NCBI GenBank assembly: GCA_000697335.1
Contig: JNEM01010760.1
Location: forward strand, 1-59,569
Length of the DNA stretch: 59,569 nt
Direction of reading: 5' to 3'
DNA from: Conidiobolus incongruus B7586
Lineage: Eukaryota
The notes under the pieces were generated by a model. That model worked only from the letters and a program-made list of their open reading frames with translations, searched no databases and was not told the DNA's origin. A program made the position numbers and the translations under genes. Within the stretch, counting starts at the first letter, position 1, and each line of letters begins with the position of its first letter. Below are positions 1,672 through 33,618 of this stretch, piece by piece.

Positions 1672-3243
1672 CACTAACCTGCAAAAATAAGTTATAAAAT
1701 CAAAAATATATATATTTTAATTAATAACTAAAACAATTGTATATTTAGATTACTTAAAACTATAATATATAATTAAGATATATTATTTAATAATAAATAA
1801 ATATATTTAGATATATTTAGTAAACTATTAGCAAAAATATTAACCTTTAATATTTAACTAAGGTGAGTTATAAATTTGTGGGTTTTTGAGATAAAAGGAT
1901 ATATTTAACAATATATAACTATATCTTTTTTCTCTTTTTGCTATTATTTTATATAATATTTTACAGTTATACTTAATTTTTTTTATTAGTATTATTATAT
2001 TTAAATCCCTCTCTAAAAAAATCTACTTGTATATTAATCAACTTTATAAAAAAAATAAATTAACTTATGATATTGCTAGAATTACTAGTGTTAGCTAGTT
2101 TATTATAGCTAAAGTTGTTAAGAATAATAATAAAGAAACATTAAAACTTAAACTTAAGTATATTAAAATTATAGATAAAGATAATAAGAAGTGTATTTAT
2201 AGGTTAATTAATATAGGTAAGTGTGGTACTTTTGTAGAAATATAGCAAGAATTATAAAACTATATAAGAATATTAGTTAACACTAATACTATTATATATA
2301 CTTTATATTAGTATAGATATTGCTTACAATTTAAGAAAAAACACCCCCAACTAAAAAAATCCTATTACAAAACTAGGTAGGAGTTTAAATATCACTACTA
2401 ATGTTGAATTAAAACTAATTAGAGTAAGGTTATTTAGTTTAATAAAACAAAAATATATTTTAGTAGATTTGATAGAAAAGCTAGATACTTCAAAAAAAAT
2501 ACAAAACTACTTTATAACCATCATGTTAATTTTACCTAAAAGTATAATAGTAGGTTAATTATTGTTTAGGGATATATATTGTTTTTAAGTATAAAGTATC
2601 TTTATAAAGTTAATAAGGGAATTAATGTTAAAATATACTAAAGTATTCTAAACAATGAATTGAAAAAAACTATTGAATAATATAGGTTAAACAAATCTAA
2701 TGTTATTTTCTAGTGAGATAATGCTTTTTGTTATATTATAGCTTTTACTACTAAATAGCTTAAAAATAATAAGATAATAGTTATAAAATAGCTTCTTTAA
2801 TCTTTTAATTTTAATCTAATTAAATACCTTTGGGATTAGTTAAAAAAAGTTATTAAAGTTTTCCCCCCAATAAAAAATTTAAATCAACTTTAAAAATATA
2901 TTTAAGAAGTATAAAATAAAATTAACCTTTCTTAATATAAGAAGTTAGTTGATTTTATACCACACATACTTAAAAAAGTTAGAAAAGTTAAAAGTAAATA
3001 CACTAGGTTTTAATTTTTTTTTATCACCAAAAACCTACAAATTTATAACTCACCTTAGGTAAAATTTAAGGATTTATATTTTAGCTAATTAATAACTAAA
3101 TATCATTATTTAATGATATATATAACTAATAAATATAATAGATTTTAATTATTTAATTTTGGTTTATTTTATTAAATATTAATCAAGTTATTAGTAAAAA
3201 TATAAGTGTTTTTGATTTTATGACTTATTTTTATAGGTTAGTG
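1672..3243 (+). mobile_element. Full-length Tc1/mariner (DD34E) DNA transposon, transposase destroyed by transitions
   Basis: TIRs CACTAACCTGCAAAAATAAGTTATAAAATC...GATTTTATGACTTATTTTTATAGGTTAGTG with TA flanks, 1572 bp. The relic ORF (about 1997-3013) reads N*SKVI*FNKTK (=DWSKVIWSDETK), KYNSRLIIV*GY (=KHGGGSIxVWGC), F**DNA (=FQ[Q/R]DNA) and *LL*SFNFNLIKYLW (=WPPQSPDLNPIEHLW), with 34 codons between the second D and the E position. Confidence 0.93.
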
Positions 3244-3520
3244 TAATATAACAAAAGAAAAAAAAGATATATTTAAATCTTATTATTTATATTTTTTTAA
3301 CTTATAAACCTATAAATTTATAACTTATTTTAGTTAAATTTTCAGTTTTAATGTATTAACCAATAATTAATAAAATATAATCAAATATAGCTCATTATAA
3401 CTAATTATAATAGATAAATTATATATTTTAATTTAAATTTATTTAATTAAGAATTATTTAAGATATATGTAAATATATAAGTAATTTTAATTTTATAACT
3501 TATTTTTGTAGGTTAGTATA

Positions 3521-3782
3521 TATATATTTAATTTAATAAAAAAATTTAAGTAATTTTTGTTTTATATATTTTTTTAATTTATAAACCAATAAATTTATAA
3601 CTTATCTTATTTTAAATTGAAGATTTAATATATTAAATAATAATATATTAAATATAATTAAATATAACCTATTATAATCAAGTAATATATTTTAATTTAA
3701 ATTAATTTAGTTAAGAATTATTTAAATTTTAGGTATATATATAAGTCATTTTTATTTTATAACTTATTTTCACAAGTTAATA
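3521..3782 (-). mobile_element. Terminal ~260 bp of a further, more decayed Tc1-family copy
   Basis: 3565-3782 resembles 3288-3518, including the inner repeat 'aaatttataacttatctt' and a terminal TIR 'attttataacttattttcacaagttaata' followed by TA. Confidence 0.7.
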
Positions 3783-6346
3783 TATAATATATGATATTAA
3801 ATAAAAAGAAATTCAATTAAAGGAAAACCCATTAGAATATTATTTCATCATATAGATAATTTACTCAATTCTATATTATTTAATCATTTTAAGTAAATAA
3901 TTGATTTATATTATAGTTTTAGAGATATTAAATTAAATTTGACTTGGTTTTATTTAAAACACTTATCCATAAAATATTGAGCTTATTATATAAACTATTG
4001 TACATTTCATTTAGATACTATATACAAATTTATTTATTATTTAGATGTTTGATAATTATATAGATGAGCTTTGAAGTTATTTGATTTGGTACAAACTCAA
4101 AATATGGATAGATATAAGATAAAAAAACTTATTTATTTAATTTTTTTATAAATTTTTATATTGAAATAAACAAAAATGTAAATTCTTTTACCATATCAAA
4201 CTTATTTTTTAGTAAAAATTTATGGAATAAATGAAGTACAAGAAAATAAGAAAATAAATTTGATTATGGTATATAATCAAATTCTGAAAGACAAATCATT
4301 ATATAAAAACTTGAATAAGATTTTTAATATATAAATTGATACAGATAGAGTGCCATTTAAGACCAAATGATTTATGTATTTTGCATTTAATATTTTTATA
4401 ATAAGAAACAGGCAATAAAATTGATTTTTAATCAAATCACATTTATAGATGGTATTATGATTTACCATTATTTTCATACGTTATAAAAAGATATGCTGTA
4501 GAAATAATATCATATTCAAGTTTCATTATTATCATTTTAATTATACACCTAAGCAAAGCAGTTTAAATACAAGATAAACAAATAATTCTTCCTGAGAATC
4601 AAGCTGAGTTTACAGGATTCAAAGTCCTGAGCACTAACTATTACACCAGCGGAGATAATTGAAAATTTGATAAATCAAATATTGAATATACAATCAACCT
4701 AATACATTTGTCTATTTTTTCTAAGTTAATAAATTGTCATATTGAATTTATTTTCTATCATTTCATTTTTCCCCATTATTTCTTTAAAGTTAATATTCTA
4801 TGATAAATTTTCAAAAGAATATCCCTTTTTGTTAAATAATTATCTGTATTAAAATTTTAATAAAAAATGTATCATATATATAATAAAAATATAATTAAAA
4901 TATTTATAAAAATTTTAGTCCTATCTTTCACTATATTAAAAATATAAAAATATTTTATGAAAATAACAAATAATTATAAAATTGGTGAATTCGATATAAG
5001 ATTTGAGATTGATTGATATCGTACTATTGATGCATATCGGATTAAATTATAATTGATTACATATAAACATGAATATATATATATATATATAATATGGAAA
5101 ATATTAAATTAAATTTTAATGAATTACTTAAATATTTCATGACATATTTTAATTAAATATATATAATCATCAATTATCAAATTATCATAAACTTATGATT
5201 ATAATAATTCATTGATCACCGAAATTAATTCAAATTTATGTTAGAAAAATTGAAAATTGTAAAATATGTTTTGTTTTATTATTAAAGAATATGTAATAAA
5301 TATATATTATTATTAAATAATGGATTAGGTATTCCATGTATTTAAATATGTGAAATTCAAATTTTTTTTGTTCACGAAAGAAGTATAATAATTTGAATAA
5401 TTTCAAATTAAATTCATAAAATAATATATTACATAATTACAGGTATATTATTAATTGATCATTATCCAAATAAATACTAATTTTAGAGTATTATTTAGGT
5501 ATTCGTCCATTAATTATGCGCTAAATATAAGAATAAATAAGTATAGTATATTATAATAGTTAATAGATTAGATAAAATAGTTCAATTTTAAAACTACATA
5601 TTGATAATATTAACTTTAAAATTAGGTACACAAATATAATCGTGCCTCGAAATTCAAATAAGTAAAATCTGAAAATGGTTGATATCTTGATACATAATTG
5701 AAATAAAAATTTTCATTTGAATTTTTTAGTGTAAATAGTTTGTGTTTAATTAATATTTTATTAGTCATGATATTTCAACACCAAATATAAGATCTAATAA
5801 CTTTTATTTTAAATTTTTGATAATTACTATAATGTAAAAAGGAAAAATATTTCATTTGTTTAGTTAGAACTCCAAGGTTTTTTGATTTTGTTGATTATAA
5901 TCTACCTAGATTCTTTATAGAAAAATATACCAGCAAGTATATTTTACCTTAATATATAATTTGTTTTTAATACTACTTTTAATTAATATAATATAACATA
6001 ATAATCAAAATCCATGCTATGTTTCAAGAATATTGTATTAAAGCATTAATATAGTATCATGATAAATGCTTAATTTGGTAGCTGTTGTGTTTTATGATAT
6101 GCTTTGTAAATAAAGATTATTGTAGGAATAGTACTTGTAATACCATTTAGTAAATTATTTATTAATCATGCTCTTTAATATATTAGGGCTAAATGTCTTA
6201 AAGCTAGCTTACTGTTGAGATATTGTAGCAGAATATTCAGAAAAAACCTCCTCTTTTTTCTTTACTATATCTAGGTTTAAATGGTTAATTCAGTGGATGA
6301 CATAGATTTGGTTAAAATCTAACAGAGAGAATAAATAGAACAAAGA

Positions 6347-6437
6347 ATATCCTTTAATTATAGACTAACAAATCCACTATAAATGAGGGGTAATATAAAC
6401 TTAACTATTGAATTGAGACAGGCAGGTATTTTTAAAA
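6347..6437 (+). repeat. ~90-bp dispersed repeat, copy 1 (copy 2 at 55311-55401)
   Basis: Shared blocks atatcctttaatt / ccactataaatgag / acttaactattgaattgaga / caggtatttt in the same order and spacing. Confidence 0.75.
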
Positions 6438-7730
6438 TACAATAATAGGTATAAATATTATCAAAATTTACTATTTCATCTATTAAACTAATTTATCAGT
6501 AATCAATAAACAATTTATATAATATAATTGATAAAAACTTTATAATTCTCAATATTAGTATATTTAAGATTATATAGCTATTATATTCAACAATTTTCCA
6601 ATCAACAAATTGAAAATTCAAAAATTTCCATTAGTATAATGGAATTATTACTGCCAAAAATAATTTATGGCAATTAACTTGTATTATAGGAATGCGAAAC
6701 TTAAAACTGCAAAATGCAGCCATTACAATTTTCATTCAAAATATGTAACAAATAAAAAATTTTAATATCCTAATCTTCAAAAATGATACCAGTTTATGAG
6801 GAATATATATTACTACATATGACTTGAGATCACAACAATTTTATTAATTTATAAACCCTGAGAATAACTTTTGAAGTGTAAATTGATAAGGATTACTAAA
6901 TTGGGTAATTATTAATAACCTCAATTTTTATATTATTTTCTTTTATCAGAAAAAATTATTGTTATTATTTTTAATTGATAATGGCATTAAATAATTTAAC
7001 TTTTATTATAGATTATTATCAAAAAAATTATTTTATTTAATATATTAATTTAATTAATTATAATATAGTAAATTATTATAAATGTTAAATAATTATGATA
7101 CAAAGAAAATCGTTTCATATTATTCAAAATTAAAAGAAAATTATCTGATCATTGAAGGAATTTAAACTGTGAATATTTTGAAAAAATGTAAGGTGACAGT
7201 CATGGACAAATTTAAATTTGGAGACTGCGCCCCTTTGTAGGTGATAAAATTTAGTTGAATTGTAACATCTGCTTGTTAGAATTGATGTTTTTCATTATAT
7301 TAATTAAGATTATATATTAAGCATGGTTTTGAAAATATATTGGTATTAATATGTATAACTCAATAATACCAATATAAATTCACTGTATTAGCGGAGTATT
7401 TCTAAATTATCTGAATGGTAGGTATCAGAAAATGTTAAATATCAAGATTAGCAGATTTAGGAAAAATTAGATAAGGCATATTTAACAATGATTGGTTAAA
7501 TCTTTAGTCCCTTATAATTCTCTTAATCAAATTTAAAATTACCTATAAAAACCCTTTTCATTTAGTATTTTGCTACAAATCTTTAATCTTTTGTACTTTA
7601 TTAACCTTTTTATATAAATAATATATACAAACAAAAAAACTAATATTTACCTCCGTTAAAAAATTTAAATATATATATATATATAATTTATCGTCTATAA
7701 TAATTTTGTATTGATAGTAAGTAAATAACC

Positions 7731-8927
7731 ATGACTAATAGTTTTTCCAAATATACGCTTTTCCTCATAGCAGGGATGTTGATAACGGGTACCGCTAATA
7801 CCTTGTTGAACAAATTGCAAGATAGACAGTGTGTTGGCGATTGTGATACCCCTCAGCCCAAGTTGTTTGAACAACCTGTATGGCAAACCCTTATTATGTT
7901 CTTTGGTGAATTTGGGTGTATTTTAGGTCCTATTGTCGCACATCTCCAAACTAAAGTCAACAAGTACACTTCTGTCGGCACAGACAGTAGTGAGCTTGTC
8001 TTTGAGCCTACACATGAGAACCCCCACGTTAAGCCTATGACAGGTAAAAGAAAGCTGCTAATGTGGCTCCCCACCCTCTGCGATATTTGTGGTACCACAT
8101 TGATGAATGTGGGTTTGATTTATACTTCGGCATCCATTTACCAAATGCTTAGAGGTGCTATTGTTTTGTTTGTCGCCATCTTTTCCGTCATCTTTTTGAA
8201 TAGGAGACTTCAACTCTATCAGTGGGGAAGTTTGGTTAGCATTGTGTTGGGTGTAAGTTTGGTTGGTTTGAGTAGTATCTTTAAGACTAGCCCTCCTAGC
8301 CCCAAAGATTTGACTAACACTGCCAATGAAGGCATGGCTGCGCTTGGTGTTTTCATGGTCTTATTTGCCCAAATGTTTACTGCTACTCAATTCGTTGTCG
8401 AAGAAAAAATTCTTTCACGCTACACTATTGGTCCTATTGAAGCTGTATATTTGGAAGGCTTCTTTGGAATTATTACCGTATCCTTCGCCATTTTGGTCGG
8501 TCACTACCAATATGGTCAATACCACCCTGGCTCCTACTTCGATGCCGTTACTGCCTATCACCAAATCTTTGACAACTTTGGTGTTTGGTCGACTGGAGTA
8601 GCCATCGCCATCTCAATTGGTTTCTTCAACTTCTTCGGCTTGTCCGTCACCAGAACCGTCTCTGCCACCTCAAGAAGTACCATTGATACCAGTAGAACTC
8701 TCTTCATTTGGATGTTCAGTTTGTTGTTGGGCTGGGAAACCTTTTCCTTCTTGCAAGTTATCGGTTTCATGCTCTTGGTGTATGGAACCTTCTTGTTCAA
8801 CGGTGTTATCGACCCTCCTGCCTGCCTCGTCACTCCTACTCAGCCTGTGATCAGCGTGCAGTCAAGTGCTGGTGGTTCTCAGCCAGCTGCCGCTGCAGTT
8901 GACGAAACCAGTCCCTTGATTGGCTAA
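7731..8927 (+). CDS. SLC35F6-like nucleotide-sugar/drug-metabolite transporter (DMT superfamily), 398 aa, intronless
   Basis: About 10 hydrophobic segments. Motifs FEQPVWQT..MFFGE, CDICGTTLMNVGL, SIYQMLRG, QFVVEEK and SATSRSTID are typical of the SLC35F6/C2orf18 family. Confidence 0.9.
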   Translation: MTNSFSKYTLFLIAGMLITGTANTLLNKLQDRQCVGDCDTPQPKLFEQPVWQTLIMFFGEFGCILGPIVAHLQTKVNKYTSVGTDSSELVFEPTHENPHVKPMTGKRKLLMWLPTLCDICGTTLMNVGLIYTSASIYQMLRGAIVLFVAIFSVIFLNRRLQLYQWGSLVSIVLGVSLVGLSSIFKTSPPSPKDLTNTANEGMAALGVFMVLFAQMFTATQFVVEEKILSRYTIGPIEAVYLEGFFGIITVSFAILVGHYQYGQYHPGSYFDAVTAYHQIFDNFGVWSTGVAIAISIGFFNFFGLSVTRTVSATSRSTIDTSRTLFIWMFSLLLGWETFSFLQVIGFMLLVYGTFLFNGVIDPPACLVTPTQPVISVQSSAGGSQPAAAAVDETSPLIG

Positions 8928-9764: not shown

Positions 9765-9837
9765 CACCCCTACTGGGGATCGAACCCAGAATCCCCGGAT
9801 TAGAAGTCCGATGCCTTATCCATTGGGCCATAGGGGC
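9765..9837 (-). tRNA. tRNA-Arg (anticodon UCU), intronless
   Basis: The reverse complement GCCCCTATGGCCCAATGGATAAGGCATCGGACTTCTAATCCGGGGATTCTGGGTTCGATCCCCAGTAGGGGTG folds as a 73-nt cloverleaf with T-loop GTTCGAT and anticodon loop CT-TCT-AA. Confidence 0.96.
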
Positions 9838-12760: not shown

Positions 12761-14334
12761 TACTAACCTACAAAAGTAAGTTATAAAATCAAAAACATTT
12801 ATATTTTTACTAATAACTTAATTAATATTTAATGAAATAAACTTAAATTAAATAGTTAAAATCTAATATATTTATTAATTATATATATCATTAAATAATA
12901 ATATTTAGCTATTAATTAGCTAAAATATAAATCTTTAAATTTTACCTAAGGTGAGTTATAAATTTATAGGTTTTTGGTGATAAAAAAAAAATTAAAATTT
13001 AATATATCTATCTTTAACTTTTTTAACTTCTTTAAGTTTATAGGGTATAAAATCAATTAACTTCTTATATCAAAAAGGGTTAATCTTGTTTTATACTTCT
13101 TAAACATATTTTTAAAATTAATTTAAATTTTTTATTAAGGGGAAAACTTTAATAGCTTTTTTTAACTAATCTTAAAGGTGTTTAATTAGATTAAGGTTAA
13201 AAAATTAAAAAAGCTACTTTATAACTATTATCTTGTTATTTTTAAGTTATTTAAAAATAAAAGTTATAATATAATAAAAAGTACTATCTTACTAGAAAAT
13301 AACATTAGATTTATTTAACCTATATTATTTAATTGTTTTTTTTTCAATTTATTGTTTAGAATACTTTAGTATATTTTAGTATTAATTCCCTTATTAACTT
13401 TATAAAAATACCTTATACCTAAAAATAACATATATCCTTAAATAATAAATAACCTATTATTATATTTTTAGGTAAAATTAACATAATAGTTATAAAATAA
13501 TTTTATATTTTTTTTTAAAACATTTAACTTTTTTATTAAATCTACTAAAATATATTTTTATTTTATTAAACTAAATAACTTTATTCTAAATAATTTTAGT
13601 TTAATATTATTAGTAATATTTAAACTCCTACTTAATTTTATAATAAGATTTCTTTAATTAAAAGTGTTTTTTCTTAAAATATAAATGGTATCTATATTAA
13701 TATAGAGTATATATAATAGTATTAATGTTAACTAATATTCTTATATTATTTTATAGTTCCTATTATATTTCTATAATAATATTATATTTACTTATATTAA
13801 CTAACCTATAAATATATTTCTTATTATATTTATTTATAATTTTAACACATTTAAATTTAAGTTTAAATGTTTTTTTATTATTATTCTTAATAACTTTAAC
13901 TATAGTAAACTAACTAATATTAGTAATTCTAATAATATTATAAATTGATTTACCTACTTTATAAAGTTGATTAATATATAAATAAATTTTTTTAGAGAGG
14001 GATTTAAGTATAAAAATATTAATAAAAAAATTTAATATATCTATAAAATATTATATAAAATAATAACAAAAAGAGAAAAAAAATATAGTTATATATTGTT
14101 AAATATATCCTTTTATCTCAAAAACCCACAAATTTATAATTTACCTTAGTTAAATATTAAAAGTTAATATTTTTGCTAATAGTTTATTAAATATATTTAA
14201 ATATATTTATTTATTATTAAATAATATACTTTAATTATATATTATAGTTTTAAGTAATTTAATATATACAATTGTTTTAGTTATTAATTAATATATATAT
14301 TTTTGATTTTAGAACTTACTTTTGTAGATTAATG
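12761..14334 (-). mobile_element. Full-length Tc1 (DD34E) copy, hypermutated
   Basis: TA-flanked TIRs TACTAACCTACAAAAGTAAGTTATAAAATC...GATTTTAGAACTTACTTTTGTAGATTAATG, 1574 bp, a colinear reverse complement of 1672-3243. Confidence 0.93.
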
Positions 14335-14336
14335 TA

Positions 14337-15100
14337 TGATTTATAATTATTATTCATTAGAACTTGTTTTTATATTAAAAATTAAAATCACTATTTAAAA
14401 ATTTTATTAGTTAAAAAATCTATATACTTTATTGGTAACTTTTTAACTTTTAAGAACTAAATTAAAACCTTTATACTATTATAATCTATTATAATAATTA
14501 ATATTTTTGATATAAAATATTCTTTGTTTGAATTTAAGAAGAGGTTTGTTTTAGTTTAACCTAGCATTTTAATTTTTGTATAAAGAAATATACACCAAAA
14601 TCTAAGATTCATTTATTTTCATGATATATTATAAAAGCTCAAGCTCCTATTTATATTCTTATAAGCTATTTTATAACTATAGATAACCTAGATTTTTTCT
14701 AAATATATGTCAAAATATATGATAATTATTTTATATTTTTCTTAATTAAACTAAGATTAAATTTTGATATATAATATACTTATAGAATAAATTTTAAAGT
14801 TTTTTGGAAATTTTGTTAATAAAATAAAAAGATAGTTTTTAATATATTTTTTATTTTCTAATAATTAGAATAATAACAGCAGAAAATATATTATCAAATT
14901 TTATCAAACTTTGGATAATTTGTTTTCTAGCTTTAAAATTACAAATCAAGCACTAGTATAGAGTTTCAGATAATATTTCATCTATAAAAGCTGAATATAT
15001 ATATTTTGAAGGATTTTAAAGGGTTTGTTGTTTAGTTTTAATAATATTCAAATATAAAACTTTTGATAATTGATCTTTATCTTAATTATGTATAAATTTA
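14337..15100 (+). mobile_element. Probable Ty3/gypsy pol (RT) relic into which the Tc1 at 12761 inserted; may continue upstream at about 12400-12760
   Basis: Decayed RT-like motifs in the expected order: KSLFK/ILLVKKS (about 14385-14420, cf. SP[WF]ASP.LLVKK), NLRRGLF* (14531-14554, cf. DL.SG[YF].Q) and QAP (14640). CpG-free and heavily frameshifted. Confidence 0.4.
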
Positions 15101-16476
15101 AGTTCTAAATTTTTGAATCAAAAATATAATAATAATAAATATAATGATATAAATTTATTTTAATTATAATTTGATATTCAAAACTTTTAATATATTTAAA
15201 TAATCAGAATTCCAAAGAGTTTCATTTTTTATTTTCTGACCTTATAAACCAAATTTACAATAATAATTTTAATAAAAAATGATAATTAATAAAAAGTTAT
15301 CCATAATTTATCAAATATATATTTATAAATTGGGTTATTATGAGTTTAAATTAATTATAATATAAAAAAGGAATTCATAATTAAAGATAATATATTGCAA
15401 TTTTGTGAAAATTTATTAATATATGGTATGTATATTTAGGGTAAAAATTTATTATAATTCTAATTAAAAATTAATTTGTTGTTCTTTGGAAATGTGAATA
15501 TGATTAAAGTATTATACCTTTTGAAAATCAAATCAATGAAAAAAGTTACAATAATGTTATAAACTACAATCAGTAGCAGTATAACTTTAATATGAATGCG
15601 TCAAAAAAATGAGCATTGATGGAATAAAAATATGTGAATATGAAATATAATCATCTATAAAATTTATTTATTTTCATAATACCTCTATACAAATAATTCA
15701 TTTCAATATCTCAAAAATACTTCTCAAACATTTCTCATAAATTTTTATTCGAAATTTGAAAATTAAATTTGAATTCCATTAGATAACTACTCATAATACA
15801 TAAAATTACCAAATATAGTAATTGATAAATAATTGAAATTTTCAAATTATAATCCATATACTATTTTTAAATTTTTTATAATTAAATTTATTTTGGGGAT
15901 AAAAATTTTCAATATAAACGGTAATATTATTGATCAATATTACTGATTATCATAAACACAAATCCAAATTTAGCTCTCAAATATATTAAAAAGGTACTAT
16001 AAAGTTATTCTTACTTGACATTAATCAAATATTTTTGTAATTAAATAATAAATATTAATATTGAGTGAAAAATCGAAGGAATCTTGAAATTTTACAATAA
16101 ATTTGTTGGGAAAAATTGGATCATGTATATTCAAATAACTGTTTCAATATCTATAATACTCAAATTATACTAAAAATCAGAATAATATATTATTAACTTT
16201 GGACAAATTGCAATAATTTTCAATTATTTTACTTAACAATAAATGCAAATAAGAAATTTTAAAAAATTTGATATTTAATATAATTAATAAAGTTAATAAA
16301 CATATCCTATAAAGATTAAATATTAATTATTATAAAATATTTCCAAATAGATGATATCATAAATATCAATATCAATACCAAAATAAAAATAGTTGAATAT
16401 TGATATGGTTAAAAAACTTTCATTTCAAAATATTGGTAATATGAAAAGGAAAATCTAATAATAGTTACAGAGTGTT

Positions 16477-20096: not shown

Positions 20097-21914
20097 TTAT
20101 TGTGCTTCAAAAGCTTTCGCCAAGTCCCAATAATGGTCACCTTTACCCTTGCCCAAAAATTCCTTGGCAATTGCATCAGTGGGACATTTCTTAAATCTGA
20201 ATCCTTTGAAAATAGGATTGGAAATTTGTCCTTCCCAAACTAAATGACAGTAATTACCGTCCTTGGCTTCTTTCTCTCCGGATTGAGACCCTTGTTCTTC
20301 ATCTACTGACATGTCATCTTCATCATCCTCATTATTGTCGTTGCCGTTTGACCATTTGATACGCCTGAGCATTAACTTTTTATAGGCTTTGATTGATTTG
20401 GGACTTCCCTCGACAATAACAAGAGAGAATGGTTCTGCTTGAATGACTACACCAGATAAATGTAATTGCTGGGCATTCTTATCAACCTTGAATTTGAATT
20501 TTGGATGCGTCAAATCACCCACTTTATATACTGTACAATGGTATCCGTAGTATTTGAGTTCTTCTGCAAGTTTTCTTTCTGCTTTTTCGCGACGTTGATC
20601 TGGAGTGAGTTTTCTATCTTGATTTTGTTGCTCATGTGCTTGTTTCCTTAGAGCAACATCTCTCCTGACTTTGGCTTCGATTTTAGTTGGATCTTGTACC
20701 GATTCGTTGGCTAGAACTCTCATCAAATTGGATAACTTCACCTTGGGTTCTTCTGGAGGTAATAATCCAAGTCGAATCTTTTCACGTTTTTCATTGAGGT
20801 CGTGTTGACGTCTCTGTCTTCTCAACTTTTTCTGTTCTTTCTTAGTTAGCATCATTGGTTTAGCGGGGAGAGGGGCTGTAACTGATGCTGGTTTAATGGC
20901 GACAGGGTGATGGATGTAATTGGTTAGTCCAGCCTGTTCGGATAAGTTAATACGATTGGAGTCAATATCAGTATATGTCTGACTTGGCAGGAATGGCGAA
21001 TCCCACCATTCTACCACTGGTGGAGGGTCACGTTTCAATGATTGGTCTCCAGTAATCAAATCTAGTTTATCCTCGAGACCAGATCGCTTAGCAGTGTTAA
21101 GAATTTGTTCTTTGAGTTGCTGGGCCTTCAATTCTGCACGCATTTGATTTCCTTGGGCAATAAATTTACCTTTAGGATTGAATCTTAAACTGCGTGGTGC
21201 ACGGGGTTTTGGTGCTAGAGTTTCAGTACCTAAAGTGGGATCATAGTATGGATTTTCCGTTGGGTCTGGCTCTTTTTCTTCTTTTTTGGCTTCTTTCTTT
21301 GCGGGTTTCACAGCAATTTTTTGATTAACCTATATAAACAGATAAGTTAGTACTGAATTTTACTTGAAGTCCATAATGAATAACTTTAGCGGTAGCAAAA
21401 TTGGGTTTTGGAATAAATGAATTTTGATTTTCATCAGCTTTTCCATTTAATGATGCGAGCATAGGATGAAGCTGGGAATTTAAACCTCCTGTAATTTTAG
21501 GTGTTTGAACTGTGGCCATTGGATTTCTGGGCGCTAAGTTAGCTGCTTGAATTCGATTCTAAAATCAAATGTTTAGTTAAGTCCAATTAAATATAATTTA
21601 AAATCAATCATCACCTGTGTTTCCAAAATTCTTCTTTGTAAATCACTCACGGATCGGTTACTTGAAGGGGGTCGAATTTGGGGACGAAAACCCGGAGGTT
21701 GATATGTAACATTATTTTGTGCTGAATTATTAGAAATTTGAGTCGTAGGAGCTGGCGGCCTTACTGCTCCTCTCCCATTTGTCATGGACGCTAATTTCTG
21801 CTGTAGCTCTCTCTTTTTTTGCTCCAAGAGTGCAGCCTAAAAAGAGTTGTAAATTAAAAACAAAATTAAATGCTTGAATGAATTTACAGTATCGTTAGAA
21901 TTAGGTGGGTTCAT
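20097..21914 (-). CDS. PRP3: U4/U6 snRNP protein Prp3, 551 aa, 4 exons
   Basis: Exons 21888-21914, 21615-21836, 21385-21558 and 20097-21329 are in frame (1656 nt). Motifs NPYYDP, PPPVVEWWD, LTKKEQKKLRRQRR, PKVKLSNLMRVL and YKKLMLRRIKW. Confidence 0.95.
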
Positions 21915-22291: not shown

Positions 22292-23419
22292 TTAGACTGA
22301 AGAAACTTCTACAGGATTAGTCGGCTTAGGGTTCAACTGGATGAGCTTATTAAAAAGACAAGATCCCAAAATAATTAAGATAAATCCTCCGACTTGAAGC
22401 CATTGAAATGTTTCCCACCCTAGTCCCATTGCAACAATCCAAACAGTGACAGTTCTAGTTACATCAATAGTAGATCTTGAGGTAGCAGAGATGGATTGAG
22501 TAACAATAAGTCCGAAAATATTAAACAATCCCAAGGACAGAGAGAAGATAATAACAATGATCATTAAATTAAAATTACTCAGTACCTGAATGAATCCGAT
22601 CGACATGTCATAAAACGATCCAGGTCGAGATACTCCTATGAAAAGATGTGTGCAAATTATAAAGATAGAAGTGGTAATCAAACCAAATCCACCTTCCATC
22701 CAAACCAAATCAAGTGGATGAATTTCGAACATACTCATAATTTTCTCTTGAGCCACGAACTGAAGGGCTGCGAAAAATTGTGCAGAAATCACAAGAAGAA
22801 TACCAATAATCCCAGTCAATAAATCAGTGTTACCAGAAGAAGTTTGCAAGTTGTTAGAACGGAGACTGTTACTAATACCCACAATGACCACACCAATAAA
22901 TATACTGTTTAGTCCACTCCACTGGTTTCTTTCGAGGCGTCTCTTCAAGAGAGTAACGGATAGCAGCCCTACGAAAAGAACCATAGAGCCCTTGAGCATC
23001 TGGAAAACAGAAACAGGAATTAATAATAGACCCATGGACATAAGGACTGTGGCAATAAGATCAAATGTGCTGGGAAACCAGACCAAAAATCTGTAGTTTC
23101 CTTTCAGCAATGGTTTGGTATCCTTTGGGACAAGAGGTGTTGTTTCATTCTTGGTTGTGGAGTTGGAAGAAGGTACTATATTTAAAGCTTTGAAAACAAA
23201 GCAAAAGAGTTCACCACAAAAAACCATAATTGTTTGCCATATAGGTTGAGAAAATTTAATGTGGTTGTTAGGATCAGGGTCAGAGCAGTTTCCAACACAC
23301 TGCTCATTCATCAATTTGATAGATAAAGTCACAATAGTTCCTAGAAGAAGCATCATGAAAACCTTGAAAGCCATCCCAAGTTTTGCGTTAACATTTTGTA
23401 TACAATTATTATTTGACAT
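22292..23419 (-). CDS. Second SLC35F6-like transporter paralog, 375 aa, intronless
   Basis: QCVGNC, FSQPIWQT..FCGE, SVFQMLKG, QFVAQEK and SATSRSTID are colinear with 7731-8927. Confidence 0.88.
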   Translation of the reverse strand: MSNNNCIQNVNAKLGMAFKVFMMLLLGTIVTLSIKLMNEQCVGNCSDPDPNNHIKFSQPIWQTIMVFCGELFCFVFKALNIVPSSNSTTKNETTPLVPKDTKPLLKGNYRFLVWFPSTFDLIATVLMSMGLLLIPVSVFQMLKGSMVLFVGLLSVTLLKRRLERNQWSGLNSIFIGVVIVGISNSLRSNNLQTSSGNTDLLTGIIGILLVISAQFFAALQFVAQEKIMSMFEIHPLDLVWMEGGFGLITTSIFIICTHLFIGVSRPGSFYDMSIGFIQVLSNFNLMIIVIIFSLSLGLFNIFGLIVTQSISATSRSTIDVTRTVTVWIVAMGLGWETFQWLQVGGFILIILGSCLFNKLIQLNPKPTNPVEVSSV

Positions 23420-26400
23420 ATTGAAATGATAGTAATGTTTAATGGTATATAATGGAGGATAAAAGTATTAATTAAATTAGACAAAAAGGGAACGAATATT
23501 TATAAAAAAGAATATATTAAATTCATACGACTAAGGGTTTATATATAAAAATTTTAAAGAATGTGAAATCTCCACTCAGCTTAAATCAGGATATCCTGAT
23601 TAGGTAATATTCAAGAGAATCTGAATGTGACATTAATTTTCATTATAAAGGAGTGAATTTTCAATTGATTTTATTGGTGATTTTAAAGTTTAGAAATTTT
23701 AGTAAGATTTATTGTTGTAATGAAAAATGGAATGACTTTTAAATAGATTGTAACTGATTAAAATGTAATAGTGGAAATATTATGAAAAATTAAGATTATT
23801 CAAGGATTACAATGAGTATATAATGATGACATCAAGCTTCAGTTCTCATAATTTGTCATAATATTAAAGTTTAAATTGGATTAAATATTTAATTAAGTGT
23901 GAAGATTTAATTCAAAACTATGGCTGATTTCAGTTTACTAGTAAGCAAATGATACTATCAACGCAACATCAGAATCAAGTGATACTTTGGTATCAGCTAT
24001 TGTCACCAATTACAACAGATAGTGTGATATAAAGTTTATATTAAATAGATTAAAAATCTGTTTTAACAAACTAATTGTTATTATAAATATAAATAATCTA
24101 TTTAGAATTAATGTGTAATTTGAAGTTTAAATAATTTAACTAAAAAGGGGCGATTACCAATTTAGGAATCTCATACACCTCAACTTTTTCATGTGATTAG
24201 TCAATTGACAAACCATATAATTCCAAATTTGGTATCGTAATAATTCGATTAGCATTTTCAAAACAAGTAGCGGTCTTGAATAAACTTGAAAGAGTTTATA
24301 TTCAGGAAAAATTAAAGGATAATTGATAATTTTTCAATATTTGTTTAAAAGTAATTAATAATCTGGGTGTAATTATTCATCACTCTAATTAATACATGAA
24401 TTACACAAGCTTACTTCAATATGCTCAATGGTAATTGGTTAAAATTCTATATTTGATTAATTCTCATAATAATTATTTTCAAAGTATAAATTTGAAAAAT
24501 TATATTGTTAGATGAATATGTTTGTGTATAAATGCAGTTAATATGATTTTGGCTTAATACAATACCTCTTAAAATAATGAAATATTTATCATTTATATTC
24601 TCAATATTTTAAACTATAAAATTAACATTGATTAACATTTATCAATCCAAAATTAATTATAAAAAACCTGAAAATTTTAAAATATATATGATTTTCTAAG
24701 GCTTTAGTGGAATATATTTTATCTTTTTTATTATTATTTGATTTGTTAATTACACTATATATCTGTATTTTAACTTTATAATTCAAATTTAATAGTAAAT
24801 TATTAAAAAATAAACAGTGCTAATGAAAAGTGATAATGATCATGTAACCTATTATATTAGATAATGGTAAAAATATAAAAACTTTTCAATTCTAGTATCA
24901 GATTATTTCAGCACAGAATCTGATGAATCATTATCCAATATAAAACCTACTCTATGTTCTCGCTACAATTCACCTATCCAGACCTTTTGACAACTCTCTT
25001 GAGTTTCTATCAAAATTTACTCCAACCTTAGCACTCTAATTTAATATTATTTAGAGATCCATTTAGGGACTCTAATAAATTATAAATTTGTAGTTTAATA
25101 AATTTAATTTATTAATTGTCTATATATCAAAGCTGAACTATTGTAATTTAAAATTTGAACGTGATCTTGACTTTATAGGGATTTCAAGTCAACTACGAAT
25201 TGTTATTTGATTACTATTTCAAATTGCTGGGATTATTTTGGTAAATTATGCCAACTTGTTATAAACAATTGCAAATAAATTATGTATATTGGTTTATTTA
25301 ATAAAATCAATATACCTAATTCATACCTCAATTATGAATTTTTTAAGATAAATATTTTTCAAAGTTGATTTATATCTCAAATTTTAAATAATTTGGTAAT
25401 ATAGATAATGAATATTTTGATCGGTTCTAAAAAAATGCTACAAATCAGATATATTTTGTATTCTATATTATACATATAAGGAATGAATACTTCATTAATG
25501 CCTGATATTTCAAATAATATATCCATTATTTTAAACTAAAATAAACCATTCAAAATTCAGTTTTTAAAATATATTAATATGAAATGATTTATTTAAGCAT
25601 TAATTTTAAATATAAAGTTTACCATGGATACCACTTTTATTATTTGCTAGATGAAAAATACTAACAATGTTTTAAGAGCAATTAGAGCAATTTTAGGTAG
25701 TGATTTGACCTTAAGCCTTTTCAATAATAGCATATATTTTACCCTTATCCTTTGCTTCATATTTGCAGAAATTTTATTTCCACTGGCTGAGTATTTTTTT
25801 GATTTTGTGATAAACTACAATTTTAGTCTTTAAAATATTGTACAAGTTGTGTTGCAGAACAAAACTTCAATCAATGATAAGGAATAGCTTAAAATTTGAA
25901 TAGGTCTAAATCATTTATATTGGAAGATGACAGATTGTTTAGAATAGTAAATAGTATCCCATAGCAACGGTAATTGATTGAAATAATATTTTAATTATAG
26001 GATTAGGTAGTGATTCATGAAATAATAAATGAGATAATACTTTATGAGTGAGAAAAACACGAACCAAATTCTTTTAATCTAATTATAATAAATTTTTATA
26101 ATGAATTGGATAAACATGAGATATTGTCACTTAAATAAGTATAAAAATTTATGCTTTATTGAATAATTAATATGTAAGAAACAATGAGCCAAAATATTAC
26201 AGATGTATTCTTTTACTTAATTCGATTGAAAAAATAAAATAGCTGAGTAATGCTTGGAAATAAAAGAACTATATTTATCACAGTTTTTTTATTAATTGGA
26301 TCTTTATTGATTTTACTATTTCATTTTTCTAAAACATTGCTAAAGATATCTATTTTACCCAACTTCTTAATGTTACTCTTAACAAATTCAATTTTTGAAT

Positions 26401-26949
26401 TTGAATTACATAATTCTTTTTTTGTTCGATATATGGTGTGCTTATACTGTTTGAATTTAGCAACTACAAAATTATTTTAAATCTCAAACCTCTCCTGTAA
26501 ATATGAATCTCTCTCTTTCATCCGTTTTGTTATATTTTCCTTTTCAATCCTTATTTCATAATTTGCTTTAATAAGGAAAAATATACTGTCAAAAATATTA
26601 ATTAAATCTTGGCTTCAAAAAAAGTTAACTTATTATTTTTTAAATTTTAATTGAATTTTAATCATTCATGGCTACTGGTTGTTTACCAGTTCTCTTCACA
26701 CATTATCTCAAAATATTAATCTGACCATTAATTATTTTGATATATATTTGAATATTAAAATGTTCATCTAATGGTGGTTTAATATCTTTCAAAGTATTAG
26801 TTTGGAAAGAAATGGTAAATTTCTCAATTTCAGGTTTTTCAAATATATTATTTAATTTAATAAATAAATTTTATCCAAAATATAAAATAGAATCAATTCT
26901 TTGAAATCATATAATTTACTCTAATAATAAATTTCTCATTAAAATATTT

Positions 26950-28200
26950 TTATTTTAAGATTTTATATTGAATTTTATTTTAATTAAATCAAATAATTAT
27001 CATTAAAAGCTTTTTATTCTAATATCACTAAAACTAACCATGAACCTTGTAAAATGATTTAAGATTTGTAAATAGTTGATAAAAATAAAATTTTTTTAAA
27101 TTTATTATTTACTAATATATTTATCACTTTAAAACTAAAAAAGATATTATATAGAATTTATTAAAATTTAAATAATAAATTATAATCAATAATTTTTATT
27201 ATATAAAAATTAACCTATATAATAAACTAAAATAATTTTGACTAATCTAAAGATTATCAAAAAAATTCAATATTAAGTATATTATATATTTTCAATTTTA
27301 AGCCTAGTTTTATTAAAATATAAAATATATATCTATATTTTAATAAATATAGAGAAGAAAATTTAAGTAAAAATAGCTTGATAAAACCTATTAAAAAATA
27401 ACCAAAATTAAAAGTTTTAATATTAAATTATTATAATGAAAAATATTAAGCTTTTTTATATAATCTGTAGCTTAAGGTCAAAACAAAATATTAACTTAAA
27501 ACATTATCTTTTATATATTTTAATATATAAAAACTCAATAAATAAGCAAATACTCATTATTATAATATATTATAATAATATATAAATTTTTAATTTAATT
27601 TTTAATAATAAATTAATTAATACCAAGTTTTATATTTTTTAAATTAAATTATTTTTTAGTATTCTAATATTAAACTAATAATAATTATTAATTTATAGAA
27701 TAATTATAAAATATTATTTATTTAACAGAATTAAACAAACTAACATATCTAATTATATACTAGAATAAATCTTATATAATTATAATTGTTTTAAGTAATT
27801 AAAAAAATACTCTTATAAAAAATTCTTGCAAATAAATTAAATTATTTAATAAAATATTAAATTCAAGTTTTTAATTAAATAAGCTATTTTTTAAATATTA
27901 GAAATATATTAGAAGTATAGCAAATATCTTACTAATAATAAAAAGAGTATTAATTTAATATTATATATTTATTTTTATATATTATATATTAAAGTGCTTA
28001 TTTATTTTTAATTTCAAAAGTATTATTAATGAAAATTTAAAATAATATCAAGAAATAAATGATTATATTTTTAATATATAGCTTTTTTTAGATCATTATT
28101 ATTATGAAAATATAATTATTGATTATACCTTAAAAACATTTACCAAATTCAAGTTAATTAATTGATATTATAATATATTTTTTAAAAGTAATAAAATTAA
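26950..28200 (+). mobile_element. mariner-type transposon relic (boundaries approximate)
   Basis: 26990-27080 is an inverted match to about 46180-46270. A degenerate C-terminal YSPD..P.D region lies at about 27740-27810. Extremely AT-rich and CpG-free. Confidence 0.6.
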
Positions 28201-29533
28201 TTAAATATAAATTATGGATAATATTCTATAATAAGGATAGTGATATTTGATATAATATTTTCTGTCATTTGTACTATATTACATGTTCCAATTGAACATC
28301 TCTGAATTATCATCCTATCAATATCTTTCTTATTCAAGAAAAAAATTAATATGAAAATCAAGTTCATAATTAACAATGATTTATTTTTACAAATTACCTT
28401 AAAATATATTCAAAAGACGAGATTTTTCAATTTTCTTTACAACTGATTTCAATTCTAAATTGTCTTAATAAATACAATATCAAAAATATTTTTCACATTT
28501 TATTGGTAATTACAAATTTGGGAAATAAAAAATTTTGAGATGATAAAATTCTTATGAATTCAATAATATATGTGGTACAGAAAACAATTTCAATTCAAAA
28601 TACATTTTTAGCAAATTACTCTCAATCCAATTTTTTACACATTTTATTCGAAAAATATTTAAACGGTTATTGAAAGCTTCCACAAAAATTTTATCACTTG
28701 AATTTAATAACTTAATAGATCAATATAATTTTTATCTGAAATATCTTTGGCTTCATACCACCAAAAATAAAAGATCTCTATTCATTTTGGATATGGATCA
28801 AATCCTTAATTCTACTAATCTCACAATATATTCCAATTGAATATAGCCTTTAGTAATATGACCAATAAATTTACAGTAATTGGTCGTACAAAAATATTGA
28901 TATGAACTTGTATATGTTTCGAGTGATTTAATTTTTTTATACCTGTATTTAAAATTCAGGATAATATAAACCAAATATTTAGTTAATTCTAAATAATTAT
29001 AGAGTTGATTATGAATATAGAATAAATTTTTAATTGAAATTCAGCTAAAATATAATTGTTTCAGTTAATATCCATATCCAAATCCACAAAATGTAATACT
29101 GCCTTTTCACAAGTTAAATTGATTCTCAAATATTTGGTCATAGTTAGTTTTCTATATTTTAATATATAAAACTTACAGTAATTATATTTTCATCCAAATT
29201 AAAACAATCCATGGCAAAAGTAAAAGACAGAGTTTAATATTTGATCTAAGTTAAAGTATATAGGCTTTTGATTCAAAAAAATTATAACTATTATAAGTAA
29301 TTTTTTTTGGTATTTATATAATTGGATGAGATGATTAATTTTGGTAATATAATGAATATACAAGAAAATCTAATTAATATTTGATGGACTGTAAAATTAA
29401 ACACCAATATGAAATTAAAGGTTATAATTATGAAAAAATTTAACTTGAAGATTTTAATACAAAAAAGTTATTTTATCTTAGAATAGCATTGAAAAATATA
29501 TTATAATAGTATATTGAAAATTCAAATAATAAT

Positions 29534-32500
29534 GGGCCTACTCAAATCTATCCTGATTTTTGATTTTTCTGATTTTTCTTAAAAATATTAAAAATATACT
29601 CAAATATAACCTAAAAAAATTCAGTAAATTTTTTTGATAATTAACTCAAAGTTTTTCTTTCCTTAAACTAAAAAATATATAATATTTATTAAAATCACCT
29701 TATAAGTTTTATTGTTTCTTATGTTTAACATAAAAGAAATAGTAGAGTTCCTTATTACTTTTATTATAATAAACTTTAATAAAAACTCAGATAATTTAGT
29801 AATTTTAAGATTATTATATAAACTAAAAACCTTAAGATATATATCTCTATAATTACTATATATACTATATTTGCTATAATAGTCTATATATAAACTTTTT
29901 TCTGAAGAAAATAATTTTAAAAAATAAATGAAAATGTTAAAAATTAAGTTTTTTTCATTTACTAATATTTTATAATTATATAAAAATTTTAAATCTTTTT
30001 AATAAAGAAAATAAACACTTTTAAAAACTTAATTAATAGTTATACTTTACTAATTAAGTTACAAAAAAACATGTTTAAAAGATATAACAGAAAAGTTTTA
30101 AATAAGAGAAAAAACTATTATTTTATATATTATAAGAGTAATATACTCTATTAAAGAGAAACTAGATGATTAAATAATTTAGTTAGAATATAATCATAAT
30201 ATAGAAAAAGATTATTTAAAATAACTCCTCTTTAATAACTATATTAGTTACTTAGATGGTAATTATATTATATTTAAAGATTAACCTATATTTTATATTT
30301 AGTTATATTATAATAAAAAAACACACATAGTTTTTAATATATAATTGTTATATTATCTTCAAATAAATTTATATATTTTGAGTTTAAGAAACTTAAATTA
30401 TATTATAACTTTAGTATTTTAAAAGCATCTAAATTATTCAATGAGTTAAATAAATATTTTAAACAAAAAAATATATTCTTATAGATAATAATAAACAATA
30501 TAATTGCTTTATATTTAAGTTAATTTATTATCAATAACAAATAAATGTCTTTATTTAATTTTTGTTTTTTATAAGTTATATTAATAATAAATTTATAGTT
30601 ATTTAATTTTAAAGAAATTCAATTAAAGCTATTTTTTTTCTATAAAAAAAATAAAAGAATTTAATATTGCATATAAAAAAAATAATCTATAGTAGAAAAA
30701 ACTTTTAATATCTAAAAAGCTATCTTTATTTGTTTAAGATTATTACTTTACTATATACAAAATATAAAAGCTTATTAATTTATTGTTATATATATATATA
30801 TAACTACTTTCCTTTATAATTTTATTTCTTTTAATAAATAAAATTATAATTAAAAAAAAGAGTTAAAAAAACTAGTGAAAATATTAATATTAATAATAAT
30901 AAATAAAATATAATGAATATAAATAATAACTTTGCTAAATTAAATAAATCATAAGTAGTGATATCATCACAAATTAATACTAAGTTAATTATTTTAAATG
31001 TATTCTTTTGATTATATTTTGTTTTATAATAAAAATTATATAAACTTATTACTTTTTTTAAAACTCCTTTATATTAATTATAAGAGTTTTTTTATTAACA
31101 ATTGTTGTTGTTTTAATATTTATAAATAACATTCTTTTTGTAATTATTATAACTTAATCTATTATCTTGAGATTTCATTTTACTTTTATATACTAACTTG
31201 TAAAAATGAGTTATAAAATCAAAAACACTTATATTTTTACTAATAACTTAATTAATATTTAATGAAATAAACATAAATTAAATAATTAAAATCTATTATA
31301 TTAATTAATTATATATATCATTAAATGATAATATTTAGCTATTAATTAGTTAAAATATAAACTTTTAAATTTTACCTAGGGTAAGTTATAAATTTATAGG
31401 TTTTTAATGATAAAAAAATTAAAACTTAATGTATTTATCTTTAACTTTTCTAACTTCTTTAAGTTTGTAAGGTATAGAATCAACTAACTTCTTATACTAA
31501 AAAAGGTTAATTTTATTCTATACTTCTTAAACATATTTTTAAAATTGATTTAAATTTTTTACTAGGGAAAAACTTTAATAACTTTTTTTAACTAATTTTA
31601 AAGGTGTTTAATTAAATTAAAGTTAAAAAATTAAACAGTTACTTTTTAACTATTATCTTGTTATTTTTAAGTTATTTGGTAATAGAAGTTATAGTATAAC
31701 AAAAAGTATTATTTTACTTGAAAATAATATTAAATTTGTTTAACTTATATTATTTAATGGTTTTTTTCAATTTATTGTTTAGAATACTTTAATATATTTT
31801 AATATTAATTCCCCTATTAATTTTATAAAGATACTTTATATTTAAAAATAATATATATCTTTAAATAATAATTAACCTACTATTATACTTTTAAATAAAA
31901 TTAACATAATAGTTATAAAATAATTTTGTATTTTTTTTAAAGTATCTAGTTTTTTTATTAAATCTACTAAAGTATATTTTTGTTTTATTAAATTAAATAA
32001 CCTTACTCTAATTAGTTTTAGTTTAATATTAATAATAACATTTAAACTCTTGTTTAACTTTATAATAGGATTTTTTTAATTAAAGGTGTTTTTTCTTAAA
32101 ATGTAAGTAGTATCTATATTAACATAAAATATATATAATAATATTAGTATTAACTAATATTCTTATATAATTTTATAATTCCTATTATATTTTTATAATA
32201 ATACTATATTTGCTTGTATTAACTAACTTATAAATATTCTTCTTATTATATTTATTTATAATTTTAATACACTTAAGTTTAAGTTTAAATGTTTTTTTAT
32301 TGTTATTTTTAACAACTTTAACTATAGTAGATTAGCTAACATTAGTAATTCTAACAATATTACAAGTTGATTTACTTTTTTTATAAAGTTAATTAATACA
32401 CAAGTAAATTTTTTTAGAGAGGGATTTAAGTATAATAATACTAATAAAAAAATTTAGTATATTTGTAAAATATTATATAAAATAATAACAAAGAGAGAAA

Positions 32501-33618
32501 AAAGATATAATTATATATTATTAAATATATCCCTTTATCTTAAAAACCTATAAATTTATAATTCACCTTACTTAAATATTAAAGGTTAATATTTTTGCTA
32601 ATAATTTACTAAATATATTTAAATATATTTATTTATTATTAAATAATATACTTTAATTATATATTATAGTTTCAAGTAATTTAATATATATAATTGTTTT
32701 AGTTATTAATTAAAATATATATATATATTTGATTTTATAACTTACTTTTACAGGTTAGTATATATTTTTTTTAATAGCTTTAAGAAAAAGGGAAAATTAA
32801 ATATTTTTTTTCTTATTTTATTATCTTTTATATTTTAAAACTTTTAATTAAAGAAAACAATAAAAGGTAAAAGCTACTACTACTTTATTTTTTATCATTT
32901 AAATAATCTAGTTCCTTATAGTAAAACTAGTTATATAATGAAGAAACTATAAGAGTTATATTAAAGGCTTTAAAAACTAAATTATCTTATGTTATAAAAG
33001 CATTAATTATTATAAACAAAAGGCTATTTTTATTATATTATTTACTTATTAAAACTTGTTCAGCAGTTTTAAATTTAAGAATAAGAGTTTTTATATGATT
33101 AAATATTTTATCAAGCTTCCTTCTTAACTTTATATAATCTACTCCTTTTAAAACAAGGACAAACTTATATATTTGAAAAAAAATATTCAACTTGTTAAAG
33201 CACCAGGATTCATAGTTTTCCTCTTGCCTCAACTAACTGAGTGTAGCTTCTATCAAATGTAGTTCAAGGGAGTCTTTATTATTACTAGTATTAATAGTAG
33301 ATGACATAGGAGAAAAAACAGGATAAACCTTAAAAGTAATGTTCTTGCTAATAGATTTATGTGGTATTTAGCACAAAATAAAAGTTGTTTGATTAATATA
33401 GAATAAAGTCATACTGTTGTGAATTGCAATGATAAATCTTTAGCCTTATTTTTATATTTTATAGGAGAAAACTGGTGGGTTTTATGAATTGAAAAAATTG
33501 GTAAGTGATTTTTTTTGACTAATTTTTTCAATTTTTTTGACTGAGTGACTAATTTTAGTTTTAGAAAAAATCAGTCAAATTGAAAATTGGAAAAAGTGGG
33601 ATAGATTTGAGTAGGCCC
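29534..33618 (+). mobile_element. PIF/Harbinger DNA transposon (~2.5 kb net) carrying a nested Tc1
   Basis: Perfect 20-bp TIR GGGCCTACTCAAATCTATCC / GGATAGATTTGAGTAGGCCC with a 3-bp AAT duplication (29531-33, 33619-21). The decayed DDE transposase on + reads ISYLDGNYI (30243, cf. G.IDG.HI), YNKK..HS (about 30310), KYILIDN (about 30470) and FNIAY...SIVEKTFNI (30660-30712). Confidence 0.88.
31191..32760 (-). mobile_element. Full-length Tc1 (DD34E) copy, hypermutated, nested in the Harbinger element
   Basis: TA-flanked TIRs TACTAACTTGTAAAAATGAGTTATAAAATC...GATTTTATAACTTACTTTTACAGGTTAGTA, 1570 bp, colinear with 12761-14334. Confidence 0.93.

Follow-up and report, generated by a model that had tools for sequence, protein, structure and literature searches.

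The question raised by contig JNEM01010760.1 of Conidiobolus incongruus B7586, whose whole length of 59,569 nt was analyzed and is called the window below, is by what process its DNA transposons were stripped of cytosine. The window harbors dead copies of a Tc1 transposon together with mariner-like and Harbinger-like relics, for which an earlier note had proposed a repeat-directed C-to-T hypermutation resembling repeat-induced point mutation (RIP), possibly representing a poorly described or independent genome-defence system. The repeat-confined, multi-context C-to-T hypermutation in this non-Dikarya fungus proved to be real; its most probable driver is methylation by enzymes of the DNMT1 and DIM-2 types, acting without RID, the enzyme of the ascomycete RIP.

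The three main Tc1 copies (A, B and C; Table 1) have the nearly equal lengths reported in the earlier note; each of them is flanked by TA and contains no CG dinucleotide. With their TA target duplication, terminal inverted repeats (TIRs), length of about 1.6 kb and homology to 338-aa transposases they resemble the Tc1 (DD34E) DNA transposons. Copy A, with X placed at the stops, matches the intact 338-aa transposase P0121 (E=1.2e-19), which carries the HTH_Tnp_Tc3_2 and DDE_3 domains (Pfam), and in the alignment of 333 codons to P0121 the second D is separated from E by 34 residues. The relics themselves gave no Pfam match above the cut-off and, in contrast to the elements they resemble, all Tc1 copies in the window are dead. 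P0121 belongs to a cluster of 14 intact or near-intact Tc1 transposases encoded on contigs of about 1.2 kb, the clade being intact in some host. Positions 1-3782 form a nested stack of this Tc1 group, in which the older copy D is split by a non-autonomous 396-bp element and by copy A and is followed by a terminal fragment.

Over their whole length copies A, B and C differ mostly by transitions, as had been claimed, with pairwise counts of 162, 161 and 141 transitions against 19, 17 and 18 transversions, respectively (ratio 7.8-9.5); the two earlier hand counts (13 transitions/3 transversions and 14/1) were reproduced exactly. When only T>C and A>G replacements were allowed, the number of residues matching P0121 rose from 116, 95 and 96 to 230, 231 and 232 for copies A, B and C (333, 333 and 331 codons, respectively), against 102-144 matches with three control substitution maps. 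Similarly, of the 163 columns conserved among 23 homologues, 143 were solved by T>C/A>G, compared with 35-45 for the controls and 32 for the unchanged sequence. The codon runs from which the earlier note had restored transposase motifs in this manner do align opposite WSDE and WP(A/P)QSPDLNPIE of the intact Tc1 transposase.

Since the highest-GC consensus of the three copies restored only one CG and underestimated the loss, it was replaced by inference of ancestral C:G sites from the protein-conserved transposase columns (23 homologues), by which 179 sites were fixed. Copy A has lost 95 of these pairs (53%), copy B 120 (67%) and copy C 126 (70%), while private transversions comprise 9, 10 and 8 of 1565 columns, respectively (about 0.6% each), and the C:G>T:A change exceeds the per-site transversion rate about 175-fold. 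Sites lost in all three copies number 70 versus 57 expected under independence, indicating that most of the loss occurred copy by copy. The age order given by the nesting in the 1-3782 region agrees with the mutation load, as copy D has lost 135 of 177 inferred C:G sites and copy A, which it hosts, 95 of the same 177. Both strands were hit, as stated in the earlier note: C>T and G>A are present together in every copy, and the losses of C and G are balanced.

In contigs from one DNA sequencing run, 37,531 pieces fell on copy A, with 388 transition places and 32 transversion places (some places being uncounted), which means that the Tc1 family is large and the pattern genome-wide. This run is possibly the source sample of the window itself. 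Four of seven listed sequencing runs contain the stretch, the four coming from one study and not being independent, and no RNA run is listed as containing it; allele shares in the contigs are biased towards the reference, do not represent copy numbers and were used only qualitatively. A scan of the metagenome contigs with degenerate TIRs returned no stretches. Opposite positions 2290-2378 a contig of 104 bases with a depth of 65 (about 10 times that of its neighbors) shows 16 differences to copy A over 89 places, a divergence close to that of a little-mutated copy and a hint at recently multiplied copies, depth not being copy number. Sequencing artefact as the source of the changes was rejected, considering that the genes in the window are intact, the changes affect both strands and they recur family-wide in the contigs.

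The change is restricted to repeats. Ten elements defined by homology or TIRs contain no CG versus 64.5 expected, and the complete absence of CG claimed for 1-4470, 12761-14334 and 29534-33618 was confirmed by counting; a figure of no CG in 18,522 bp was discarded as circular, since the underlying blocks had been picked for CG absence, and the ten-element count was used instead. The observed/expected ratio (O/E) of CA is 0.45-0.65 in the Tc1 copies, and the unique non-coding DNA located more than 1 kb away has O/E of 0.68 for CG and 1.13 for CA. The composite RIP index was above zero in 21 of 118 index windows, every one of them over transposon blocks. Two sequences within the window serve as controls. 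The PNGase A gene is accompanied by an old, broken tandem duplicate, which keeps its CG (12 versus 12.7 expected) and differs from the gene by 66 transitions and 55 transversions. The isolated 460-bp mariner-like fragment, being as diverged as its heavily mutated relatives, has largely escaped (3 CG, 24% GC, CA not depleted); three clustered relatives have lost 54/112, 61/108 and 64/108 C:G pairs with respect to it and gained 25/359, 24/350 and 16/355. The escape of both sequences means that lack of selection alone does not produce the pattern, and the same spectrum in unique neutral DNA, named in the earlier note as a counter-argument, was not found, as unique DNA and the PNGase duplicate keep both CG and CA. 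The C:G>T:A change of the transposons is directional, confined to repeats and present on both strands. At nine cluster edges the first CG lies on average 356 bp outwards, compared with 169 bp (p=0.005) or 215 bp when GC-matched (p=0.022), CA being normal there; CG-free flanks that keep CA were noted beside transposon clusters at 3840-4478, 15230-15598, 28921-29533, 44697-45127 and 46456-47114. CG loss spreads a little, by a few hundred bases, beyond the repeats, and CA loss stays inside them.

The context of the losses was resolved by the 3′ base. Lost copy-sites comprise 30 of 33 for CG (91%, 11 sites), 65 of 78 for CA (83%), 42 of 81 for CT (52%) and 57 of 141 for CC, and for contexts left ambiguous 87 of 102 (CA/CG) and 60 of 102 (CC/CT); a stricter column set gave the same picture (CA 0.89, CG 0.83, CT 0.49, CC 0.41). 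With regard to CpA as the main target, CA stands above CT and CC, while CG is equally high (p=0.38 for CA versus CG). Altogether 224 of 341 losses are at definitely non-CpG sites, so the earlier statement that the change is broader than CpG-only decay holds true. The variation of TIR positions 9-10 was also found as described, with TG in four, TA in four and CA in two of the ten TIR copies found. Among 111 CC pairs that keep the second C, eight have lost the first, and among 145 that have lost the second, 66 have (p=2e-12), the corresponding values for protein-fixed pairs being 2/33 and 53/102. Only two TC haplotypes were observed versus 26-31 in an equal-rate simulation; with CG fixed at 2.5, simulated rates gave a best value of 0.9 for CT, at the grid edge, about 2.0 for CA and 0.05-0.2 for CC, all of them rough. 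In the reference-biased contigs, loss along a run of five C before A rises from below 1% to 3.5, 14 and 33% towards A. At two likely CG sites in these contigs C/G persists in 29%/6% and 5%/1%. Loss at CC is mostly secondary, occurring after the 3′ neighbor has mutated, and the erosion of C runs from the 3′ end requires several successive rounds of loss.

These data bear on the simplest explanation, namely ordinary CpG-only decay combined with a genome-wide AT drift, the repeats being merely unselected. The window's GC content of 22.6%, the scarcity of CG in unique non-coding DNA as well and the completeness of CG loss in the repeats would all agree with it. However, two-thirds of the losses lie outside CpG, CA is depleted in the Tc1 copies and not in unique DNA, the unselected PNGase pseudogene keeps CG, the equally old mariner fragment keeps C:G pairs lost by three relatives, and the haplotype counts depart from equal rates. 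We therefore consider this explanation scarcely credible and largely refuted. Slow decay confined to CpG, also envisaged in the earlier note, fails on the confinement, while slow deamination of methylcytosine in several contexts is still compatible with the data.

The 5′ base has some effect, the loss being 0.50, 0.57, 0.68 and 0.76 after A, G, T and C, respectively; the value for C results from the CC/CA structure of the sites. A CHG effect (CTG 0.60 versus CTA 0.42 and CTT 0.34) is not claimed, being confounded with the way G was inferred. Clustering by strand was seen in only one of nine tests at the 0.05 level, although many rounds of mutation would blur such a signal. Direct action of a cytosine deaminase (AID/APOBEC-like or similar) on transposon DNA, with methylation being incidental, would give pure C>T change on both strands in several contexts at a very high load, and the influence of the 5′ base could speak for it. 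Known polynucleotide deaminases, however, respond for the most part to the base on the 5′ side and produce clustered changes on single strands. Here the 3′ base is the main determinant, as for C5 methyltransferases, the high loss after 5′ C stems from site structure and the strand clustering is lacking, which makes a deaminase quite improbable.

As to the host, PRP3 matches that of Conidiobolus coronatus at 78%, the next named matches being Basidiobolus (53%), Neoconidiobolus (52%) and Entomophthora (51%), and no ascomycete is named among the PRP3 matches listed. In a quick tree of 27 rows (26 of 120 listed matches and the window protein) it grouped with C. coronatus and one further protein with support of 100, and the clade uniting them with Neoconidiobolus and Entomophthora had support of 97. 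A scan of the contigs for PRP3 yielded 70 loci, none above 59% identity; they provided no Conidiobolus DNA for comparison and were left unused. The second marker, PNGase A, matches C. coronatus proteins at 62-65% and most other organisms at 36% or less. Judging by these two proteins, the host stands close to C. coronatus within the Entomophthorales and does not belong to Dikarya, as the earlier note had supposed; there is no indication of an ascomycete, in which the pattern would be ordinary RIP.

The next alternative is true RIP, in which duplicates recognized by homology would be mutated in sexual (zygospore) bursts over many cycles by a DIM-2-branch or an unrecognized RID-like enzyme. The roughly 175-fold excess of C:G>T:A over transversions, the strong CA component and the positive composite index restricted to transposon blocks are all in its favor, and the escape of the short isolated fragment is what length thresholds would allow. 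Moreover, the DIM-2 of Neurospora can bring about RIP in the absence of RID, with a preference for CpA and an extension into neighboring single-copy sequence (bioRxiv 10.1101/115501). Since DIM-2 can act without RID and a long series of sexual cycles would erode the sequence in the same way, premeiotic RIP keeps some plausibility. On the other hand, RID was not detected in the sequenced relative C. coronatus in a published survey (PMC10538959), it is reported only from Pezizomycotina (PMC5751038), and an equally strong effect on CG and CA does not match the signature of RID (PMC4352252). Furthermore, there is no consistent strand clustering, the spill-over into flanks concerns CG only and leaves CA unaffected, and the linked PNGase duplicate is untouched. 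The last argument is softened by its identity of 71%, maybe too low for it to count as a duplicate, and both this duplicate and the 460-bp fragment may lie below the thresholds of a homology trigger. Considering these facts, we regard true RIP as unlikely. In outcome the pattern works like RIP, of which it is at most a candidate member, considering that no clustering in bursts was observed and that CG counts fully among its targets. The earlier suggestion of strict RIP or of an independent system is hence unsupported: strand-clustered bursts were not seen, the loss is cumulative, and the relative has DNMT1 and a DIM-2-clade protein with no RID detected.

The enzymes reported for this relative offer an alternative. 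For C. coronatus a published survey lists DNMT1 (KXN74494), two DNMT2 and UHRF1, and neither DNMT4 (RID) nor DNMT5 was detected (PMC10538959); in the tree of the same paper KXN73869_Conidiobolus falls beside the Dim2 of Neurospora (99.9/97) and outside the RID clade. The occurrence of a CG enzyme and a non-CG enzyme in the relative fits the two tiers of loss. In Zymoseptoria tritici, Dim2 makes mitotic C>T changes at CA within repeats more than ten times as frequent (PMC8016269). The enzymes of the relative and the mutator activity of the Zymoseptoria Dim2 favor cumulative, methylation-linked C-to-T decay of transposons by DNMT1- and DIM-2-type enzymes without RID, an account we hold to be slightly better than an even bet. 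According to it, the two enzymes would repeatedly methylate transposon cytosines, and in the course of ordinary growth these would then become permanent thymines over several rounds, independently of RID. DNMT1/UHRF1 would presumably be responsible for the loss of CG, including that in a few hundred bases of flank, and the DIM-2-clade enzyme for the loss of CA and CT confined to repeats. The conversion itself may be either enzyme-driven, as proposed for Zymoseptoria Dim2, or due to unrepaired spontaneous deamination.

Several circumstances weigh against this account. Repeated sexual rounds of RIP would give the same stepwise erosion and erase strand clustering, and one runs test, that for copy C, was significant (p=0.022). 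The CG class comprises only 11 sites, and the CG-poor flanks could be unrecognized older relics instead. The enzyme list belongs to C. coronatus and not to the host of the window, and the table in PMC10538959 has KXN73869 in the Coemansia row, while the tree and the alignment label it Conidiobolus. The Zymoseptoria mutator acts at CA in more than 98% of cases and spares CG, unlike the pattern found here (PMC8016269). In Phycomyces, which has DNMT1 and DIM2, methylation is 3.4% at CG, 0.5% at CHG and 0.9% at CHH, i.e., low outside CG, while CA is here lost about as often as CG. Finally, C. coronatus was scored "no_rip" by a k-mer screen (PMC12543289).

With respect to the mode of conversion, the deamination rate of 5-methylcytosine at 37°C is about 6e-13 per second; with T:G mismatches left unrepaired, each site could thus be hit once in 1e5-1e6 years, which agrees with 0.6% transversions. 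That Conidiobolus has an active, enzyme-driven, RID-independent defence, converting transposon C into T by means of a DIM-2-clade methyltransferase together with DNMT1, is a tentative proposition, on the doubtful side of even.

The pattern in the window was compared with the closest known systems. The mitotic mutator of Z. tritici resembles it in repeat-restricted, accumulating C>T change with a strong CA component and in a DIM-2-type enzyme (the relative here having a DIM-2-clade protein); it differs in the sparing of CG, since both CG and CT are lost here, and in operating in an ascomycete with rid, a gene not detected in the relative C. coronatus, and the pattern in the window is known from sequence alone (PMC8016269). 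RIP of Neurospora and other Pezizomycotina shares the C:G>T:A change on both strands, restriction to repeats, preference for CA over CT and CC, AT-rich dead transposons and a positive composite index, but not the equal targeting of CG, the absence of consistent strand clustering, the lack of detected RID in the relative or the entomophthoralean host. The CpG-only signature of the basidiomycetes Microbotryum, Puccinia and Melampsora is similar in complete CG loss from repeats and a DNMT1-type enzyme without RID, and different in that most of the inferred losses here are definitely non-CpG (PMC4352252). A further precedent is the work of Stajich et al. (2024; PMC11105155), where RIP-like change outside Dikarya was suggested for the same order Entomophthorales, with Zoophthora radicans reaching 24.2% of the genome; it relied on dinucleotide indices only, with stated caveats, whereas here copies were aligned, the direction was taken from intact homologues and the contexts were resolved. 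This index-based signal in Entomophthorales, already published and disputed, also speaks against the independent system suggested earlier. Among 1,239 genomes, strong RIP signatures were limited to four ascomycete classes (Badet and Croll, 2025; PMC12543289). Chytrids were reported as negative. No alignment-based account of such contexts in Conidiobolus was found in the literature searched, most subscription papers being outside the search.

Table 1. Positions of the transposon relics, control sequences and marker genes in the window.
Feature	Position	Strand	Remarks
Tc1 copy A	1672..3243	+	1572 bp; transposase relic at ~2003-3004 with 23 stop codons; sits at TA within older copy D
Tc1 copy B	12761..14334	-	1574 bp; transposase frame with 28 stop codons
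Tc1 copy C	31191..32760	-	1570 bp; transposase frame with 25 stop codons; lies within the Harbinger-like element
Older related Tc1 copy D	1..3518	-	Three collinear pieces (2-1189, 1590-1669, 3248-3517), interrupted by a 396-bp miniature inverted-repeat transposable element and copy A
Non-autonomous 396-bp element	1192..1587		Tc1-type TIRs as in A-C; TA-flanked; mutated less than A-C, yet no CG
Another terminal fragment of this Tc1 group	3540..3782	-	Follows copy D
Harbinger-like element	29534..33618		4085 bp; GC-rich TIRs of 20 bp that match each other; AAT duplication at both ends; no CG; CA depleted
Mariner-like relic	14340..15230		No CG
Mariner-like relic	26806..28079		No CG; GC 11%
Mariner-like relic	45128..46455		No CG; GC 12%
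Isolated 460-bp mariner-like fragment	39576..40035	+	Control; largely escaped
Old broken PNGase A duplicate	40036..40450	-	Control
PRP3, main exon	20097..21329	-	Taxonomic marker
PNGase A gene	42173..43993	-	Second taxonomic marker

The Harbinger-like and mariner-like relics had been said to show the same bias as Tc1. The bias is indeed visible in the composition of both and, for mariner, also in comparison with the less mutated fragment, with two qualifications as to the labels: the Harbinger-like element had no Pfam match in 12 frames and is named after its TIRs and 3-bp AAT duplication, and the mariner label stems from a single weak Pfam match (HTH_48, E=0.021) in one of 18 frames. Pairwise mariner alignments gave 135 transitions and 180 transversions, these relics being too old to show a high ratio. 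The right end of the Harbinger-like element (32763-33618), with intact TIRs, has 22.5% GC, CA O/E of 0.82 and no CG versus 10.9 expected, and the left part is more depleted (13.5% GC, CA O/E of 0.69). Another CG-free block (57930-59569; no CG versus 7.3 expected) has 13% GC and normal CA. A short dispersed repeat occurs at 6083-6442 and 55201-55406 as two pieces of about 84 and 96 bp with 77-81% identity. Ordinary genes lie at 7725-8927, 19373-19759, 22292-23467, 33944-35410, 48258-48932 and 57297-57746, their products being two EamA/nucleotide-sugar transporters, SGF29, a kelch-repeat protein, a 1-Cys peroxiredoxin and profilin. The best named matches of PNGase A are four C. coronatus proteins, followed mostly by plants and a few Mucoromycota at no more than 36%, a patchy distribution for a fungal gene.

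The general view confines RIP-like mutagenesis to Dikarya. The window adds alignment-level, polarized evidence of heavy non-CpG C-to-T loss from the repeats of a Conidiobolus, whose sequenced relative has DIM-2 and DNMT1 with no RID detected, making testable the question of DIM-2 alone as an ancient repeat mutator. If conversion is passive, the finding represents an extreme case of a known process. If an active RID-independent defence does operate, RIP-like mutagenesis would exist outside Dikarya, and the mutator activity of DIM-2 would predate the RID-based RIP of ascomycetes. By inference, the phenomenon may also bear on the contrast between the small genomes of Conidiobolus, of about 40 Mb, and those of the related Entomophthoraceae, which reach 1 Gb.

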